DNA of 6,412 bases, taken from IMG/VR virus record IMGVR_UViG_2690316210_000006, one strand, 5' to 3'. The DNA is from a virus (Duplodnaviria > Heunggongvirae > Uroviricota > Caudoviricetes). This document shows, one piece after another, positions 32 through 6,412 of the stretch. How positions within the stretch are numbered: position 1 is the first letter of the stretch; each line of letters opens with the position of its first letter. The position numbers and the translations under genes were made by a program. The notes under the pieces were generated by a model. The model was not told where the DNA came from. It ran no database searches and saw only the letters and a program-made list of their open reading frames with translations.

Positions 32-358
32 TCACTGGCGCTGACACTTCATCACCTCCGGACGTAAATCACCATCCTTTGGTGCATTCAGAAACGCGTT
101 CAGTGTCCCCGGTGCATCAGTCGGTGCCACATCAATATCCCCGACACGGGTTGGCTGCCAGCCGTTACAGTGAAGCGCAACCTCGTAATACCCCGGCTCA
201 GCCTCAATCACATAAGCACCGTTATTGTCCGTCACGCAAGTGGCAACAACGTGTGCCACAACGGTCGGACTGGTTCTTCTGGCCCGCAGTTCAATCGCAC
301 AATTTACGACAGGTTTACCCGCCCCATCTTTCAGTACACCTGAAATCTTTACTGCCAT
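32..358 (-). CDS. Side-tail-fibre (Stf) N-terminal-domain-like protein, 108 aa, ending at a TGA 31 nt from the window edge; possibly a truncated stf remnant
   Basis: Minus-strand ORF; from the internal Met the product begins MAVKISGVLKDGAGKPV..., matching the recalled N-terminus of lambda Stf, with PGTLN.FL and RPEV motifs also conserved. ATG at 356-358 is preceded by GGGGTGAAT (SD-like, ~5 nt spacing). The longer ORF-track start at 400 would overlap a terminator-like hairpin. Position after lom matches lambda order J-lom-stf. Confidence 0.55.
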   Translation of the reverse strand: MAVKISGVLKDGAGKPVVNCAIELRARRTSPTVVAHVVATCVTDNNGAYVIEAEPGYYEVALHCNGWQPTRVGDIDVAPTDAPGTLNAFLNAPKDGDLRPEVMKCQRQ

Positions 359-369
359 ATTCACCCCAC

Positions 370-394
370 AAAAAGCCCGCCTGAACCAGCGGGC
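370..394 (-). terminator. Putative intrinsic terminator downstream of lom (hairpin plus U-tract)
   Basis: On the minus strand: GCCCGC-TGGTTCAG-GCGGGC (6-bp perfect stem, plus-strand 375-394) followed by TTTTT (plus-strand A-run 370-374). Lies between the lom stop (422) and the stf-like start (358). Confidence 0.4.
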
Positions 395-421
395 AGTCAT
401 AACACTGTGTTACCTGGCTAA

Positions 422-1021
422 TCAGAACTTATAACCGACACCCACGATGAAACCGTCAGTGCGCCAGTCACCACTGCCGGAACCTTCATAAGCAAGGTCA
501 ATGGCCACGGATTCGGTCGGGTTAAACTGCACGCCAGCCCCCCACGCCAGAGACGTGTTGCTGTGGCGACCGCCATCACTCCCGGTCAGCACATCGTGCG
601 TTTTCCCCTTGTTGTCAGTTACGCGGAGATAATCCCCGGAGAAGGTCGACACACGGCTGTAAGCCACGCCCGCCATCGCATACGCGCTGAACCATTCATT
701 CACGCGCACAGACGGCCCCGCCATCACGCTGAACCAGCGGTTACGCACGGAATCCTCATGCCAGCGGGTATCGCTGTAATGCGTTTTTTGCTCATCTTCA
801 GCGTTGGCATAACTGAATGACGTAATCAGCCCCAGCGTGTCCGTAAACTCATAACGGTATTTCACGTTAATGCCCTTCAGGTCATCGCTGCCTGGCATAT
901 CAGTATGGGTCTGAAGATACCCGGCGCTCAGCGTGGACTGATGTTCAGACGCCCATGCAGGCGCACCGGATACGGCCAGGCAAATGGCTGCGGACAAAAT
1001 GGCTGCACAAACTTTACGCAT
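422..1021 (-). CDS. lom: Lom outer-membrane beta-barrel protein (Ail/Lom/PagC family), 199 aa, intact
   Basis: Minus-strand ORF; protein MRKVCAAILSAAICLAVSGAPAWASEHQ... is near-identical to recalled lambda Lom. Sec signal peptide with an AWA cleavage motif; C-terminal ...GVGYKF with terminal Phe typical of OMP beta-barrels. SD GAGAGG about 5 nt upstream of the ATG. Sits directly downstream of the J stop as in lambda. Confidence 0.95.
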   Translation of the reverse strand: MRKVCAAILSAAICLAVSGAPAWASEHQSTLSAGYLQTHTDMPGSDDLKGINVKYRYEFTDTLGLITSFSYANAEDEQKTHYSDTRWHEDSVRNRWFSVMAGPSVRVNEWFSAYAMAGVAYSRVSTFSGDYLRVTDNKGKTHDVLTGSDGGRHSNTSLAWGAGVQFNPTESVAIDLAYEGSGSGDWRTDGFIVGVGYKF

Positions 1022-1042
1022 AATTACCTCTCGCTTTTCTGC

Positions 1043-1070
1043 AATAAAAAAGGCACCATTTCTGGTGCCC
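1043..1070 (-). terminator. Putative intrinsic terminator between J and lom (copy 1)
   Basis: Minus strand: GGCACC-AGAAAT-GGTGCC (plus-strand 1052-1069) followed by TTTTTTATT, starting 20 nt after the J stop codon. Confidence 0.6.
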
Positions 1071-1088: not shown

Positions 1089-2522
1089 TCAGCTAATCGT
1101 GATGCCTGCAGTGGCTTTCTTCATCACCACAACCAGCAAATCGCTGATACTTGCTGTGGGATACCAGCCATTTACCAGCCATGCCGATACAGAAAACTCC
1201 AGCGTCATGTGACCGTGACCGGCAGGCATATCAATAACACCCGTATATATCAGCGTATTATCCAGGGTCGTTCGGTTATAAATTTCAGCACCGTTTTTCT
1301 TCACTATCAGGCGGCATGACGAATAAATATTGTTATTCTTCCGCTCATGTTTAGCACCGCGAAACGCCACCGCGGGAATAACAATTTGCCGATCAAACGG
1401 CTGATCGTCATAAACCCTGACGGTAATGGTCCCTGATGGCCACCTCTCCGGTGCCCGGGAGTCCCGTGGGAAAGGTTTGCCCACTGTTTTAACGAGATCG
1501 CCTTCAATCTGGTTCGCGGACAATTTTCCCAGAACCCGACAGTTCTTATTAATCGTGACGTTGTTGAGCGTCCCGGAGTTCGCGTTCACGTTACCGCTGA
1601 TATCGGCATTTTTCGCCGTCAGCCGCCCGTCCGGTGTCAGGGAAAATGCCGGAGGATTACCGCCGCTGGTAATGGTCGGAGCCGTCAGGCATTTCAGGAA
1701 CACGTCGTTCATGAATATCTGATCGCCCTGACCAACAAACATCGGCTTTGTGTTGCCATTCGCAGGATTAATCATCGCAATCCTGTCTGCCGCCAGCAGC
1801 ACCTGACTCTGCATTCCTGCTGGCGTATTCTCAATACCGGCACCGATACCCGCAATATAAAGGCGTCCGTCCTTCATCTGTTGCAGCTTCACAGCCCACA
1901 TGCTGTTCAGGTTATTATTTGTATCAACCTGAACTTTCTGTATCTGCTGGATTGCAGCACTCTGATTTTCCAGTTTTTTATTGACGGTTTGCGTGATTTC
2001 ATTGCTGACATTCGTAATGGACGTCCTGATTTCAGTCAGGTCCGGCGCAAGCTGACCGTTATCAATCTGCGTCCACAACTCCTTGCCGAGATGCGTTTTA
2101 TTGATCAACCCTTTATAAAAATTCAGATAACCTTCTGCATCATCGCTCGCCCGACCGATGGCCTCCACAAATGCCGATTTGCCAACGGTGTTCACACTGC
2201 GAACGTAAAAATAATAATCATGGCCCGGCCTGATATTGATACTGGCGGCTATCCAGTACAGCGCCGTGCCAAGATAGCGTGCTGTGGTTTCAACCTGCCT
2301 GATATCCGCAATCCGCTTTTCCGAGAACCAGAACTCAAACTGTACCGTCGGATCATAAACCGCAAGATGCGGCGTGGCGGTTATCTGAAAATAGCCCGGC
2401 GTCAGCTCAATCCGCGACAGCGCTGCCGGTGCGGCAATCCGGAACGATACCGACGCCGGATCGCCCTGCTGCCCCCACGCATTTACTGCCCGGACTGTCA
2501 GCCTGTAGTTCCCCAGCGCCAG
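1089..2522 (-). CDS. J: Host-specificity / tail-tip protein J, C-terminal ~477 codons (allele 1), 5'-truncated at the ambiguous base 2523
   Basis: The minus-strand frame reads [32 protein letters not shown]...[12 protein letters not shown]...[25 protein letters not shown]... to ...[10 protein letters not shown] then TGA (1089-1091), collinear with the recalled lambda J C-terminal region. The ORF-track start at 2195 is an in-frame GTG (Val in J), not a real start. Confidence 0.85.
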
Positions 2523-2523
2523 N

Positions 2524-2919
2524 GGTCAGCACATCGTGCGTTTTCCCCTTGTTGTCAGTTACGCGGAGATAATCCCCGGAGAAAGTCGACACACGGCTGT
2601 AAGCCACACCCGCCATCGAATACGCGCTGAACCAGCGGTTACGCACGGAATCTTCATGCCAGCGGGTATCGCTGTAGTGCGTTTTTTGCTCATCCTCAGC
2701 ATTGGCATAACTGAAGGACGTAATCAGCCCCAGCGCGTCCGTAAACTCATAACGGTATTTCACGTTAATCCCGTTCAGATTATCGCTGCCGGGAGCGTTC
2801 GTACGGGCATGAAGATACCCCGCGCTCAGTGTGGACTGATGTTCAGACGCCCATGCAGGCGCACCGGATACGGACAGACAGATGGCTGCGGACAAAATGA
2901 CTGCACAAACTTTACGCAT
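2524..2919 (-). CDS. lom: Lom-family OMP, second allele, N-terminal fragment only (truncated at ambiguous base 2523), with a 42-bp in-frame deletion relative to copy 1
   Basis: ATG at 2917-2919 with the same SD context as copy 1; product MRKVCAVILSAAICLSVSGAPAWASEHQ...; aligns to copy 1 positions 584-1021 apart from a 14-codon deletion and scattered substitutions. The frame then runs across N2523 into out-of-frame J sequence. Confidence 0.75.
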
Positions 2920-2940: not shown

Positions 2941-2968
2941 AATAAAAAAGGCGCCATTTCTGGCGCCC
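2941..2968 (-). terminator. Putative intrinsic terminator between J and lom (copy 2)
   Basis: Minus strand: GGCGCC-AGAAAT-GGCGCC (plus-strand 2950-2967) followed by TTTTTTATT. Same position as the copy-1 terminator, with a compensatory stem change. Confidence 0.6.
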
Positions 2969-2986: not shown

Positions 2987-4249
2987 TCAGCTGATACTGA
3001 TGCCTGCGGTGGCTTTCTTCATCACCACAACCAGCAAATCGCTGATACTTGCTGTGGGATACCAGTTATTCACCAGCCATGCTGACACCGAAAACTCCAG
3101 CGTCATGTGGCCGCGACCAGCTGGCATATCAATAACACCACTGTAAATCAGCGTATTATCCAGCGCGGTACGGTTATAAATTTCAGCACCGTTTTTCCGT
3201 ACTATCAGGCGGCATGACGAATAAATATCGTTATTCTCCCGCTCATGTTTAGCGCCGCTGAATGCCACCGCCGGAATAACAATCTGCCGGTCAAACGGCT
3301 GATCGTCATAAACCCTGACGGTGATGGTCCCTGATGGCCACCGTTCCGGTGCACGGGAGTCCCGGGGGAAAGCTTTGCCCACTGTTTTAACGAGATCGCC
3401 TTCAATCTGGTTGGCGGACAATTTTCCCAGAACCCGACAGTTCTCGTTAATCGTGACGTTGTTGAGCGTCCCGGAGTTCGCATTCACGTTACCGCTGATA
3501 TCGGCATTTTTCGCCGTCAGCCGCCCGTCCGGTGTCAGGGAAAATGCCGGAGGATTACCGCCGCTGGTAATGGTCGGAGCCGTCAGGCATTTCAGGAACA
3601 CGTCGTTCATGAATATCTGATCGCCCTGACCAACAAACATCGGCTTTGTGTTGCCATTCGCAGGATTAATCATCGCAATCCGGTCAGCAGCCAGAAGCAC
3701 CTGACTCTGCATACCTGCTGGCGTATTCTCAATACCGGCTCCGATACCCGCAATATAAAGGCGTCCGTCCTTCATCTGCTGCAGTTTCACGGCCCACATG
3801 CTGTTCAGGTTATTATTTGTATCAACCTGAACTTTCTGTATCTGCTGGATTGCCGCACTCTGGTCTTCCAGTTTTTTATTGACGGTCTGCGTGATTTCAT
3901 TGCTGACATTCGTAATGGACGTCCTGATTTCAGCCAGGTCCGGCGCAAGCTGACCGTTATCAATCTGCGTCCACAACTCCTGGGCCAGATGTGTTTTCCC
4001 GATTTCTCCTTTGAAAAAATCCAGGTAACCTTCCGCATCATCGCTCGCCCGACCGACAGCCTCCACGAATGCCGATTTGCCAACGGTGTTCACACTGCGG
4101 ATATAAAAGTAATAATCATGGCCCGGTTTGATATTGATACTGGCGGCTATCCAGTACAGCGCCGTACCAAGATAGCGGGCTGTGGTTTCAACCTGCCTGA
4201 TATCGGTAATCCGCTTTTCCGAGAACCAGAACTCAAACTGTACCGTCGG
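2987..4249 (-). CDS. J: Host-specificity protein J, C-terminal 420 codons (allele 2), from PTVQFEFW... to stop; joined upstream to another J segment at ambiguous base 4250
   Basis: Continuous minus-strand frame [28 protein letters not shown]...[32 protein letters not shown]...[10 protein letters not shown] with TGA at 2987-2989. About 95% amino-acid identity to allele 1, with many synonymous nucleotide differences. Confidence 0.85.
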
Positions 4250-4250
4250 N

Positions 4251-4969
4251 GGTGTCAGGGAAAATGCCGGAGGATTACCGCCGCTGGTAATGGTCGGAGC
4301 CGTCAGGCATTTCAGGAACACGTCGTTCATGAATATCTGATCGCCCTGACCAACAAACATCGGCTTTGTGTTGCCATTCGCAGGATTAATCATCGCAATC
4401 CTGTCTGCCGCCAGCAGCACCTGACTCTGCATTCCTGCTGGCGTATTCTCAATACCGGCACCGATACCCGCAATATAAAGGCGTCCGTCCTTCATCTGTT
4501 GCAGCTTCACAGCCCACATGCTGTTCAGGTTATTATTTGTATCAACCTGAACTTTCTGTATCTGCTGGATTGCAGCACTCTGATTTTCCAGTTTTTTATT
4601 GACGGTTTGCGTGATTTCATTGCTGACATTCGTAATGGACGTCCTGATTTCAGTCAGGTCCGGCGCAAGCTGACCGTTATCAATCTGCGTCCACAACTCC
4701 TTGCCGAGATGCGTTTTATTGATCAACCCTTTATAAAAATTCAGATAACCTTCTGCATCATCGCTCGCCCGACCGATGGCCTCCACAAATGCCGATTTGC
4801 CAACGGTGTTCACACTGCGAACGTAAAAGTAATAATCATGGCCCGGTTTGATATTGATACTGGCGGCTATCCAGTACAGCGCCGTGCCAAGATAGCGTGC
4901 TGTGGTTTCAACCTGCCTGATATCCGCAATCCGCTTTTCCGAGAACCAGAACTCAAACTGTACCGTCGG
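4251..4969 (-). CDS. J: Host-specificity protein J internal segment (third copy, 719 bp, PTVQFEFW... to ...[10 protein letters not shown]), allele-1-like, bounded by N4250 and the N-run
   Basis: Same reading frame as the J copy downstream; the sequence matches 1633-2351 almost exactly and 3531-4249 at ~95%. Forms the N-terminal part of the 608-aa ORF-track entry 2987..4813. Confidence 0.8.
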
Positions 4970-5152
4970 NNNNNNNNNNNNNNNNNNNNNNNNNNNNNNN
5001 NNNNNNNNNNNNNNNNNNNNNNNNNNNNNNNNNNNNNNNNNNNNNNNNNNNNNNNNNNNNNNNNNNNNNNNNNNNNNNNNNNNNNNNNNNNNNNNNNNNN
5101 NNNNNNNNNNNNNNNNNNNNNNNNNNNNNNNNNNNNNNNNNNNNNNNNNNNN
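4970..5152. other. Run of 183 ambiguous bases (assembly gap or masked sequence) inside the J reading frame
   Basis: Directly visible as n characters. Its length is close to the ~185 nt of J coding sequence expected between the flanks (STARTTET upstream, PTVQFEFW downstream). Confidence 1.
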
Positions 5153-6412
5153 GTGGTTTCCGTCGTCCGGGCCGTGCTGACCAGTCGCTCACTGCCGTCG
5201 TCCGCTGTTACGGTCAGACGGAGCAGGAAGCTCACGCCCTTCACCACCTTCGGCGTGTCCCAGCGCGCCAGCACCTGATATTCCCCGCTGTCTGCAGTGA
5301 CTTCGGCGGTCAGGTGCTGCACTGCTGGCGGCGTGACACCATTCACCGTGCCGCTCTGGTCACCGTCAAAGTGCGCCCCGTTATCCACGATGGCTTCTTT
5401 CTCCGGTACATGCTGCACGGCGGTGATGGCATACGTGCCGTCATCGTTCTCACGGATACTCACGCAGCGGAACAGGCGCTGGCGCAGCGTCGGCAGCTTC
5501 AGCCCCCACACGCTGTATTCTGCAACGCCGTCAGGAACACGGCTCACTTTCACCTTCACGCCGTCGGTGACGGACTGGACCTCCACGCTGACCGGATTAC
5601 CCTGACCGTCAACCAGGCTTATCAGCGTGGTACCGGAGGATGGCAGCGTGATTTCACGGTCGAGCGTCAGCGTCCGGGTCTGGCTGTTCACCGCCAGCAC
5701 GCGCCCGCCGGTGCTGATACCCGCATAGTCATCATCGCAGATTTCAATGACATCCCCCGGTACATGGCGAAGCCCTTCCGCACCCACGCTGAAGTCCACG
5801 GTCTGCGTTTCCAGCAGTTCCGTTTTAATCAGCCACAGCCCGGCGCGGTGCGCCTGCCCCCGGCTGGTACAGCCAAAGGCATCCATCTTCGTGACGTTAC
5901 GACCGTAACGGNACAAGCTCTGTCGCCGTCTCCCAGCCGTTATCCGGGTCAATCCAGTTCACCTCAACGGCATTATGACGGTCCTTCAGGGCACTGAAGC
6001 TGTAGCGGAACGGCGCGCCATCATCCGGCATCACCACATTACTGCGGTTATAGGCCCACACCTTATCCGACTGTCGGTCCTGCACGAACGTCAGCGTCTG
6101 CCCGTTCCATACCGGCATACAGCGCATCGCCGAGCAGAAATCACTGAGAACATCCCACGCCTTGCGCTGTGTGGTCAGGTAGGCATTACAGGTGATGCGC
6201 GGCTCCGTGCCACCAAAGCCATCCGGCACCGACTGGTCGCAATTCTGGCCGATGACATACAGCGCCCATTTGTCCACATCCGCCGCACCGAGACGCTTCC
6301 CCATGCCGTAGCGCGGATGGGTCAGCATATCCCACAGACACCAGGCCATGTTGTTGCTGTATGCCGGTTTTAGCGTTCCGTCCCAGATACCGCTGTATTG
6401 CCGCGTCTGCGG
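5153..6412 (-). CDS. J: Host-specificity protein J, central region (5'-partial at window edge), with a frame break at ambiguous base 5912
   Basis: Minus-strand translation gives ...MAWCLWDMLTHPRYGMGKRLGAADVDKWALYVIGQNCDQSVPDGFGGTEPRITCNAYL...NAVEVNWIDPDNGWETATEL, then after N5912 in another frame RYGRNVTKMDAFGCTSRGQAHRAGLWLIKTELLETQTVDFSVGAEGLRHVPGDVIEICDDDYAG...LVSTARTTET, collinear with recalled lambda J. Confidence 0.9.

Follow-up and report, generated by a model that had tools for sequence, protein, structure and literature searches.

A predicted intrinsic terminator after the tail gene J of lambdoid prophages: stem alleles, covariation and the lom cassette behind it

The hairpin and U-tract located between the tail gene J and lom in the DNA analysed here (6,412 nucleotides; "the window" denotes this whole stretch) very probably constitute a canonical intrinsic terminator of J, at which unmodified RNA polymerase would stop and which Q-modified polymerase would read through, with the lom cassette inserted after it. 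The physiological role as a stop signal is counted weaker, as the late genes stf and tfa lie downstream and would have to be transcribed across it. Judged from its sequence, the hairpin is a real, functional-looking and ordinary element, and it was already known as a predicted terminator, since the site is annotated in the phages mEp460 and Ayreon. Added here are population-level covariation of the stem, the assignment of the hairpin to J instead of lom, and a caveat concerning the scaffold from which the window was taken.

Gene context and status of the two copies

All genes in the window were located on the minus strand, in the order 3' part of J, short spacer, lom, second short spacer and start of stf. 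Coordinates are listed in Table 1, and the homologue of the frame at 1089..2522 is named J in phage records.

Table 1. Features of the window, with the evidence used to place them.
Feature	Position	Strand	Description
Predicted terminator hairpin, copy 1	1051..1070	-	5'-GGGCACCA GAAA UGGUGCCU-3'; sequence, folding, terminator scan
U-tract, copy 1	1043..1051	-	UUUUUUAUU; first U (1051) pairs with G1070
Predicted terminator hairpin, copy 2	2949..2968	-	5'-GGGCGCCA GAAA UGGCGCCU-3'; variable pair G2964-C2953
U-tract, copy 2	2941..2949	-	UUUUUUAUU
J 3' part, copy 1 (tail-tip/host-specificity)	1089..2522	-	ORF; Pfam Ig_GpJ_C 6e-37, Phage_Tail_Tip 8e-32; cut by N at 2523
J 3' part, copy 2	2987..4249	-	Stop codon 2987-2989; cut by N at 4250
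lom leader	1022..1042	-	21 nt from U-tract to ATG; Shine-Dalgarno GAGAGG at 1032-1027
lom copy 1, 199 aa, Ail/Lom outer-membrane beta-barrel protein	422..1021	-	ORF; Pfam Ail_Lom 4e-129
lom copy 2, partial	2524..2919	-	Cut by N at 2523; 42-nt in-frame deletion relative to copy 1
Second terminator-like hairpin	370..394 (hairpin 375-394)	-	GCCCGCU GGUUCA GGCGGGC, then UUUUU; scan, folding, conservation
stf start (side tail fibre)	32..358	-	ORF; Pfam phage_tail_N 1e-36
Scaffold joins by N	2523 (single N), 4250 (single), 4970-5152 (run), 5912 (single)		Sequence

The sequence-only reading, made from the letters of the window and a list of open reading frames, had treated the two J-lom sequences as copies of one another. 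Two such sequences are indeed present, and their J parts are ~93% identical, but the best interpretation takes them as alleles that came from different lambdoid prophages (or collapsed contigs) within a single draft genome and were joined by scaffolding, and not as a duplication. The N at 2523 parts the contig bearing copy 1 from the contig bearing copy 2, the joined pieces each begin or end at repeat edges, and the piece at 4251-4969 is 99.6% identical to 1633-2351. A query across the N at 2523 was searched against 5,426 complete E. coli genomes. Its best matches covered 1,939 bases in three pieces, which is exactly the span of one J-lom locus hit in permuted order and is consistent with a single locus and not a tandem; the contiguous span of ~1,200 bases that would be expected from a real tandem was not what these complete genomes gave. 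An N-joined double arrangement of the same kind was seen in an IMG/VR draft contig. A real tandem duplication of lom and J was rejected on the basis of the single-N joins at repeat edges, the 99.6% identical piece and the match of complete genomes to a single locus only, and the seemingly tandem repeats of lom and J are an artefact of the assembly. The region itself is widespread, being found in 4,884 of the 5,426 complete E. coli genomes at a median of two places per genome and a maximum of 15. The A-U versus G-C difference between the two copies represents circulating allelic stem states of E. coli prophages and not an event in this genome.

Further observations were made on the genes of the window. 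Copy 2 of lom (2625-2634, compared with 685-736) is without 42 nt (14 codons) that lie between two 10-nt direct repeats, CGCTGAACCA, of copy 1; the apparent loss looks like a slippage deletion and would remove part of the beta-barrel. The stf frame ends after 108 codons in the lineage of the window, and the same form occurs in 6 related loci, while most relatives have 400-1,100 codons; stf is probably truncated or replaced in this lineage. Long ORFs on the plus strand antisense to J, at 1881-2630, 3989-5278 and 5314-5997, reach up to 429 codons and cross N characters, and they are unsupported by-products of J composition.

Hairpin structure and folding

The hairpin starts 18 nt past the J stop codon (1089-1091 in copy 1), in sense orientation. 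In copy 1 the 5' arm occupies 1070-1063, the loop 1062-1059 and the 3' arm 1058-1051, with the variable pair at A1066-U1055. A perfect 6-bp stem had been described from the sequence alone; its pairing was kept in the present analysis, but the predicted minus-strand stem is 8 bp long, with a GAAA loop, a G.U pair at its base (1070/1051 in copy 1) and an A-U pair closing the loop. In both copies the U-tract begins at the final stem position.

Both versions were folded, as had been proposed. Copy 1 gave a minimum free energy (MFE) of -14.2 kcal/mol with a z score of -3.06 against dinucleotide shuffles, and copy 2 gave -15.7 kcal/mol with a z score of -3.52, whereas the opposite strand folded worse (-12.1 and -13.6 kcal/mol, z ~-1.7). 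A simple terminator scan reported 8 pairs for each copy (5 GC in copy 1 and 6 GC in copy 2) with 4-nt loops, and the same scan also found a third hairpin 3' of lom, at 375-394. Under strict criteria (at least 7 pairs, at least 5 G-C pairs and at least 5 T in 8), strong terminator-like hairpins occurred in 5 registers in the window, compared with a mean of 0.45 in 200 dinucleotide shuffles, none of which reached 5; hairpins of such strength are therefore beyond chance.

The U-tract is present on the coding strand only, and the G.U pair at the base works on that strand alone. A bidirectional terminator was rejected, as the plus strand is without a T run after the stem. An Rfam scan of the whole window at E<=1 returned no match at the hairpin, its sole hit being a chance-level lncRNA elsewhere, and the MFE and centroid structures contained the terminator hairpin only, with no alternative (antiterminator) fold competing. 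Taken by sequence features, the element shows a G+C-rich stem, a short loop, a U run on one strand, sense placement after a stop codon and conserved pairing, all of which are expected of an intrinsic terminator. The earlier suggestion of a terminator or attenuator thus found agreement in its first part, through these features and the annotation of mEp460 and Ayreon, but neither an alternative structure nor an upstream promoter was found in favour of an attenuator.

Comparison of the two copies

On the plus strand, copy 1 reads ggcacc (1052-1057), atttct, ggtgcc (1064-1069), and copy 2 reads ggcgcc (2950-2955), atttct, ggcgcc (2962-2967). The copies differ at exactly one stem pair, a1055/t1066 in copy 1 and g2953/c2964 in copy 2, so that the stem bases, their positions and the paired A to G and T to C change were as the sequence-only reading had reported. 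Only 3 differences separate the copies over the 67-nt spacer that runs from the J stop codon to the lom ATG; two of these are the stem partners, and the third (1075/2973) is located upstream of the stem. No difference falls in the loop, the U-tract or the lom leader.

The weight of a single compensated pair was estimated using a two-copy simulation in which substitutions were introduced at the measured divergence of 7.1%, with 62% transitions. A doubly changed yet paired position without any broken pair was obtained with P ~0.009, and in 53% of comparisons at least one pair was expected to be broken. Taken alone, a single compensated pair in a two-sequence comparison is modest, mildly significant evidence. 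Covariation of this kind had been called good evidence of function; the pairing proved to be kept far beyond two copies, but the single pair carries only this modest weight and template switching offers an alternative origin for it.

Stem alleles and covariation across prophages

Further instances of the site were collected from IMG/VR viral contigs by means of the Lom protein, the lom leader and a J 3'-end stretch, the last of which is conserved and is independent of lom and of the hairpin; one genome per species and annotated phage records served as additional sources. Full context was available for 263 instances, of which 252 (~96%) had fully paired stems in six allelic forms. The most common form was GGCGCC/GGCGCC (144 instances in 91 distinct 446-nt contexts), followed by the copy 1 allele GGCACC/GGUGCC (47 in 33 contexts) and by GGCGUC/GACGCC, which occurred with a GAAA loop (36 in 27 contexts) and with a GGAA loop (15 in 10 contexts). 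The GGCGCC stem was also found with the loop reverse-complemented, AGAAAU to AUUUCU (9 in 4 contexts), and GGUGCC/GGCACC was found once, in a single context.

Homologues with disrupted stems, which had been named in advance as evidence that would speak against the hairpin, were rare. The half-changed forms were singletons or doubletons among the 263, namely the G.U intermediate GGCGCC/GGUGCC (1), the U.G intermediate GGUGCC/GGCGCC (2 copies) and the C.A mismatch GGCGCC/GACGCC (1). In addition, there was one GGCACC/GACGCC stem with two mismatches, an apparent recombinant, and a few instances carried single-base deletions in the hairpin. The common alleles folded at -14.4 to -15.7 kcal/mol and the rare broken forms at -8 to -10.6 kcal/mol. 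A mosaic breakpoint was observed within the 5' arm of the hairpin in one locus (L011), ~40 nt upstream of lom; upstream of the breakpoint this locus shows no relation to J, and the stem is reduced to CACC/GGUG, with a predicted energy of -8 kcal/mol.

Covariation was assessed on a MAFFT alignment of 36 distinct sequences using the eight-pair structure. Standard pairs were formed in 97.2% of the alignment cells, and two-sided changes were present in 4 of the 8 pairs (C-G/U-A once, G-C/A-U seven times, C-G/U-A eight times and A-U/U-A once), the varying pairs being three core stem pairs and the loop-closing pair. None of 500 column shuffles, which ignore relatedness, reached the observed covariation score or percentage paired, and when the 3' partners were slid by 1-3 columns the pairing fell to 35-61%. 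The G.U pair at the base was kept in 32 of the 36 sequences. Five T columns of the U-tract were invariant and the sixth was nearly so, and the segment just upstream of the stem was the most variable part of the spacer. Since the prophages are closely related and recombining, independent compensatory events are few, perhaps a single one for each pair; what is informative is that double stem changes are common, with single ones nearly absent.

The paired changes might instead have arisen through neutral DNA processes, the quasi-palindrome being kept perfect by replication template switching or by gene conversion between prophages, in which case a compensated change would carry no information on RNA function. 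Template switching is documented as a source of multibase compensatory changes and of stem repair (Monttinen and Loytynoja 2022, PMC8794818), and the site resembles the stems described there in its compensated changes and in its exact loop-inversion allele, although that work concerns structural RNA genes. The exact reverse complement of the loop, found in 9 loci, is a typical template-switch or inversion footprint, and the paired sites are 11 nt apart, so that linkage alone would preserve haplotypes. Neutral processes leave unexplained, however, why the conserved U-tract is present on one strand only, why the element directly follows a stop codon and why lambda and Citrobacter have unrelated hairpins with U-tracts at this position; moreover, the G.U pair at the base, which is a G.T mismatch in DNA, has been retained and not "corrected". 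A purely neutral origin is accordingly regarded as decidedly improbable. Template switching may well supply the variants while selection keeps the terminator. The loop-inversion allele itself (AGAAAT to ATTTCT within a palindromic GGCGCC stem) was noted upstream of lom in L015, L018, L033, L038, L039 and L041, and it is the footprint of a hairpin inversion or template-switch event, which shows that hairpin changes at the DNA level take place at this site.

Other stems at the same site and known systems

At the same place in lambda (NC_001416, ~18920-18944), a hairpin CGUCCG-GGAA-CGGGCG is followed by UUUUAUUAU, downstream of the J stop codon and ahead of the Shine-Dalgarno sequence of lom. As in the window, the loop is a purine-rich 4-nt loop and the gene order is J, hairpin, lom, hairpin, stf. 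Unlike that of the window, the lambda stem is unrelated in sequence, contains a U.G pair, is weaker (centroid -8.1 kcal/mol) and is unannotated in the lambda record. A Citrobacter prophage whose Lom is 71% identical carries another unrelated stem, GAGCGCUC-AUUC-GGGCGCUU, followed by U-rich sequence. In a Stx1 phage whose Lom is ~49% identical, the GGCACC/GGUGCC stem is kept with a CAGG loop and an inverted closing pair. A hairpin with a U-tract right after J is thus conserved as a feature even where the sequence differs.

The closest annotated counterparts are GenBank phage records. In mEp460 (JQ182728) a "rho-independent terminator" is annotated at 18380-18406, at the same J-lom position and with the same architecture, U-tract and lom leader; it differs in its allele, which is GGCGUC/GACGCC around a GGAA loop. 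The record of Escherichia phage Ayreon (MF807953) has a "terminator" at 18454-18494, again at the same position and with the same architecture, and it carries the copy 1 stem GGCACC/GGTGCC. Both annotations are predictions.

A scan for the lambda-type J-lom leader returned 34 copies without hairpin variation, so the lambda type provides no covariation information. A search of genome contigs with the Lom alignment gave few informative divergent loci (Citrobacter, E. albertii, E. ruysiae). The same search mostly returned lambda DNA, in loci (L214-L242) on short, very low-coverage contigs of unrelated organisms, the assemblies including Neobacillus, Kitasatospora, Pseudomonas, Shewanella, Bradyrhizobium, Enterococcus and others; a lambda-identical J-lom spacer was confirmed in a few of these loci. 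The lambda-type lom in this set is almost certainly laboratory lambda DNA that contaminated the assemblies.

Relation of the hairpin to lom

The sequence-only reading had proposed that the hairpin separates tail-gene transcription from lom. This specific role was not borne out. Phages without lom (Lambda_ev245, Tritos, several IMG/VR contigs and the GGUGCC/GGCACC contig) keep the hairpin and U-tract between J and stf, in the arrangement J, hairpin, UUUUUUAUU and then at once UGUGGAGUGAAUAUG, which is the start of stf. In phages with lom, the leader (GCAGAAAAGCGAGAGGUAAUU), lom, a conserved 3' flank and a second hairpin are located between the first U-tract and the stf start. As the hairpin is kept where lom is absent, it is assigned as a 3' element of J, behind which the lom cassette was inserted. 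In BLAST coverage, homology blocks between phages start or stop at the hairpin edges.

The lom leader was unchanged in 83 of 83 protein-anchored loci, and in the J-anchored sample it showed single-base variants only. The second hairpin, located between the lom stop codon and the stf start, is conserved across loci, including lambda, and forms the 3' end of the lom cassette. The ~60 nt past the lom stop codon (370-421, minus strand) are near-identical to lambda (locus L203, 1087-1150), in which the Lom protein is just 48% identical; the second hairpin lies within this stretch, as does a small inverted repeat, GUAACAC/GUGUUAU, and the near-identity suggests a conserved cassette boundary.

The cassette may be compared with a moron, an extra gene with its own transcription signals between lambdoid late genes (Juhala et al. 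2000, summarised in PMC3594210). Like a moron, lom is present or absent between the same conserved flanks, has its own downstream terminator and follows directly after the terminator of the preceding gene. Unlike in a moron, the J hairpin lies outside the lom insert, being retained in phages that lack lom, and no lom promoter was recognised by consensus scan.

That scan, applied to the minus strand of the whole window including 1.3 kb upstream of lom, found no promoter-like site, and it is blind to weak or non-sigma-70 promoters. The lom ATG follows the U-tract after just 21 nt, a gap that seems too short to hold a separate promoter. Expression of lom in lysogens has been reported, as has strong expression in the lytic cycle (PMC7067206, PMC9836094), and in the Stx phage phi24B lom expression is independent of induction (PMC3342100). 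No promoter or terminator is mapped at the J-lom site in these three papers, and literature searches for the mapping of a lom promoter, or of a terminator following J, returned nothing specific. Lysogenic expression, together with the lack of a consensus-like promoter between hairpin and lom, counts against the terminator reading.

These facts could be accommodated if the hairpin were a 5' leader attenuator or regulator of lom, with a promoter in the J 3' end and lysogenic lom expression set by regulated read-through; the short gap, the expression in lysogens and the induction-independent expression in one Stx phage speak for it. Such an arrangement is considered very unlikely: the scan gave no promoter-like site, no competing antiterminator fold and no Rfam match were obtained, the segment upstream of the stem is the most variable of the spacer, and the same hairpin is present where lom is absent.

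A further possibility is that the hairpin serves both as a terminator and as the 3' end, bound by Hfq, of a small RNA that originates from the 3' end of the J transcript. With its long U-tract and an A/U-rich stretch ahead of it, the hairpin has the general shape of such ends, and many sRNAs of this kind are encoded in the prophage regions of pathogenic E. coli. Pas, HnrS and 24B_1, the described prophage sRNAs that were examined, map elsewhere, however; the segment upstream of the stem lacks the conservation expected of a seed, and the consensus scan gave no promoter-like site on the minus strand. This reading is therefore held to be exceedingly improbable. As candidates for an sRNA of the site, 24B_1 RNA was rejected because it lies downstream of lom on the other strand, and the Pas sRNAs and HnrS were rejected because the former are near the Q/lysis region and the latter is elsewhere, neither being at the J-lom hairpin.

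Proposed working

Q-modified RNA polymerase reads through the terminators of lambdoid late operons. As stf and tfa are located downstream of the hairpin, late transcription must read through it. Under the preferred reading of the hairpin as the intrinsic terminator of J, RNA polymerase that is not modified by Q, as in the prophage state or in stray transcription of the tail genes, would stop at the hairpin; this stop would insulate lom and stf, and RNA containing J would receive a stable 3' end from the hairpin. In lytic growth, polymerase modified by Q would read through, so that lom, stf and tfa would be expressed. The lom cassette, consisting of leader, gene and its own downstream terminator, is inserted directly after the U-tract.

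The same placement could be taken to mean that the hairpin is not a termination site but a stabiliser or processing barrier at an RNA 3' end, which would block 3'-to-5' exonucleases after downstream cleavage of the Q-antiterminated late transcript and so set the stability of J mRNA relative to lom and stf. Consistent with this are the location of the hairpin between genes of one late operon that need co-transcription, its retention between J and stf even without lom, and the freedom of the loop to vary (GAAA, UUUC, GGAA, CAGG), which indicates that only the stem matters. The near-invariant run of six U after the stem, however, is a signature of intrinsic termination that an exonuclease block would not need, and a barrier in place of a terminator is judged unlikely. 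The two roles are not mutually exclusive and can coexist.

Significance

Term-seq and dRNA-seq data exist for E. coli O157:H7 Sakai (GSE143631; PMC7547250). Lysogenic lom expression, the 21-nt gap and the lack of a recognisable promoter together raise the idea that the hairpin might control lom; that it is a control point of lysogenic lom expression through regulated or leaky read-through from J, or else the 3' end of a J-derived Hfq-binding RNA, is thought improbable. If either were true, the allelic series with its loop inversion would represent template-switch mutation shaping a regulatory hairpin in recombining prophages. On the preferred reading as a terminator of J, the finding would have little import beyond good annotation, in that the J 3' hairpin evolves in sequence like a selected intrinsic terminator, and the lom virulence cassette is inserted right behind it, with a strong predicted terminator 21 nt upstream of the lom start codon.
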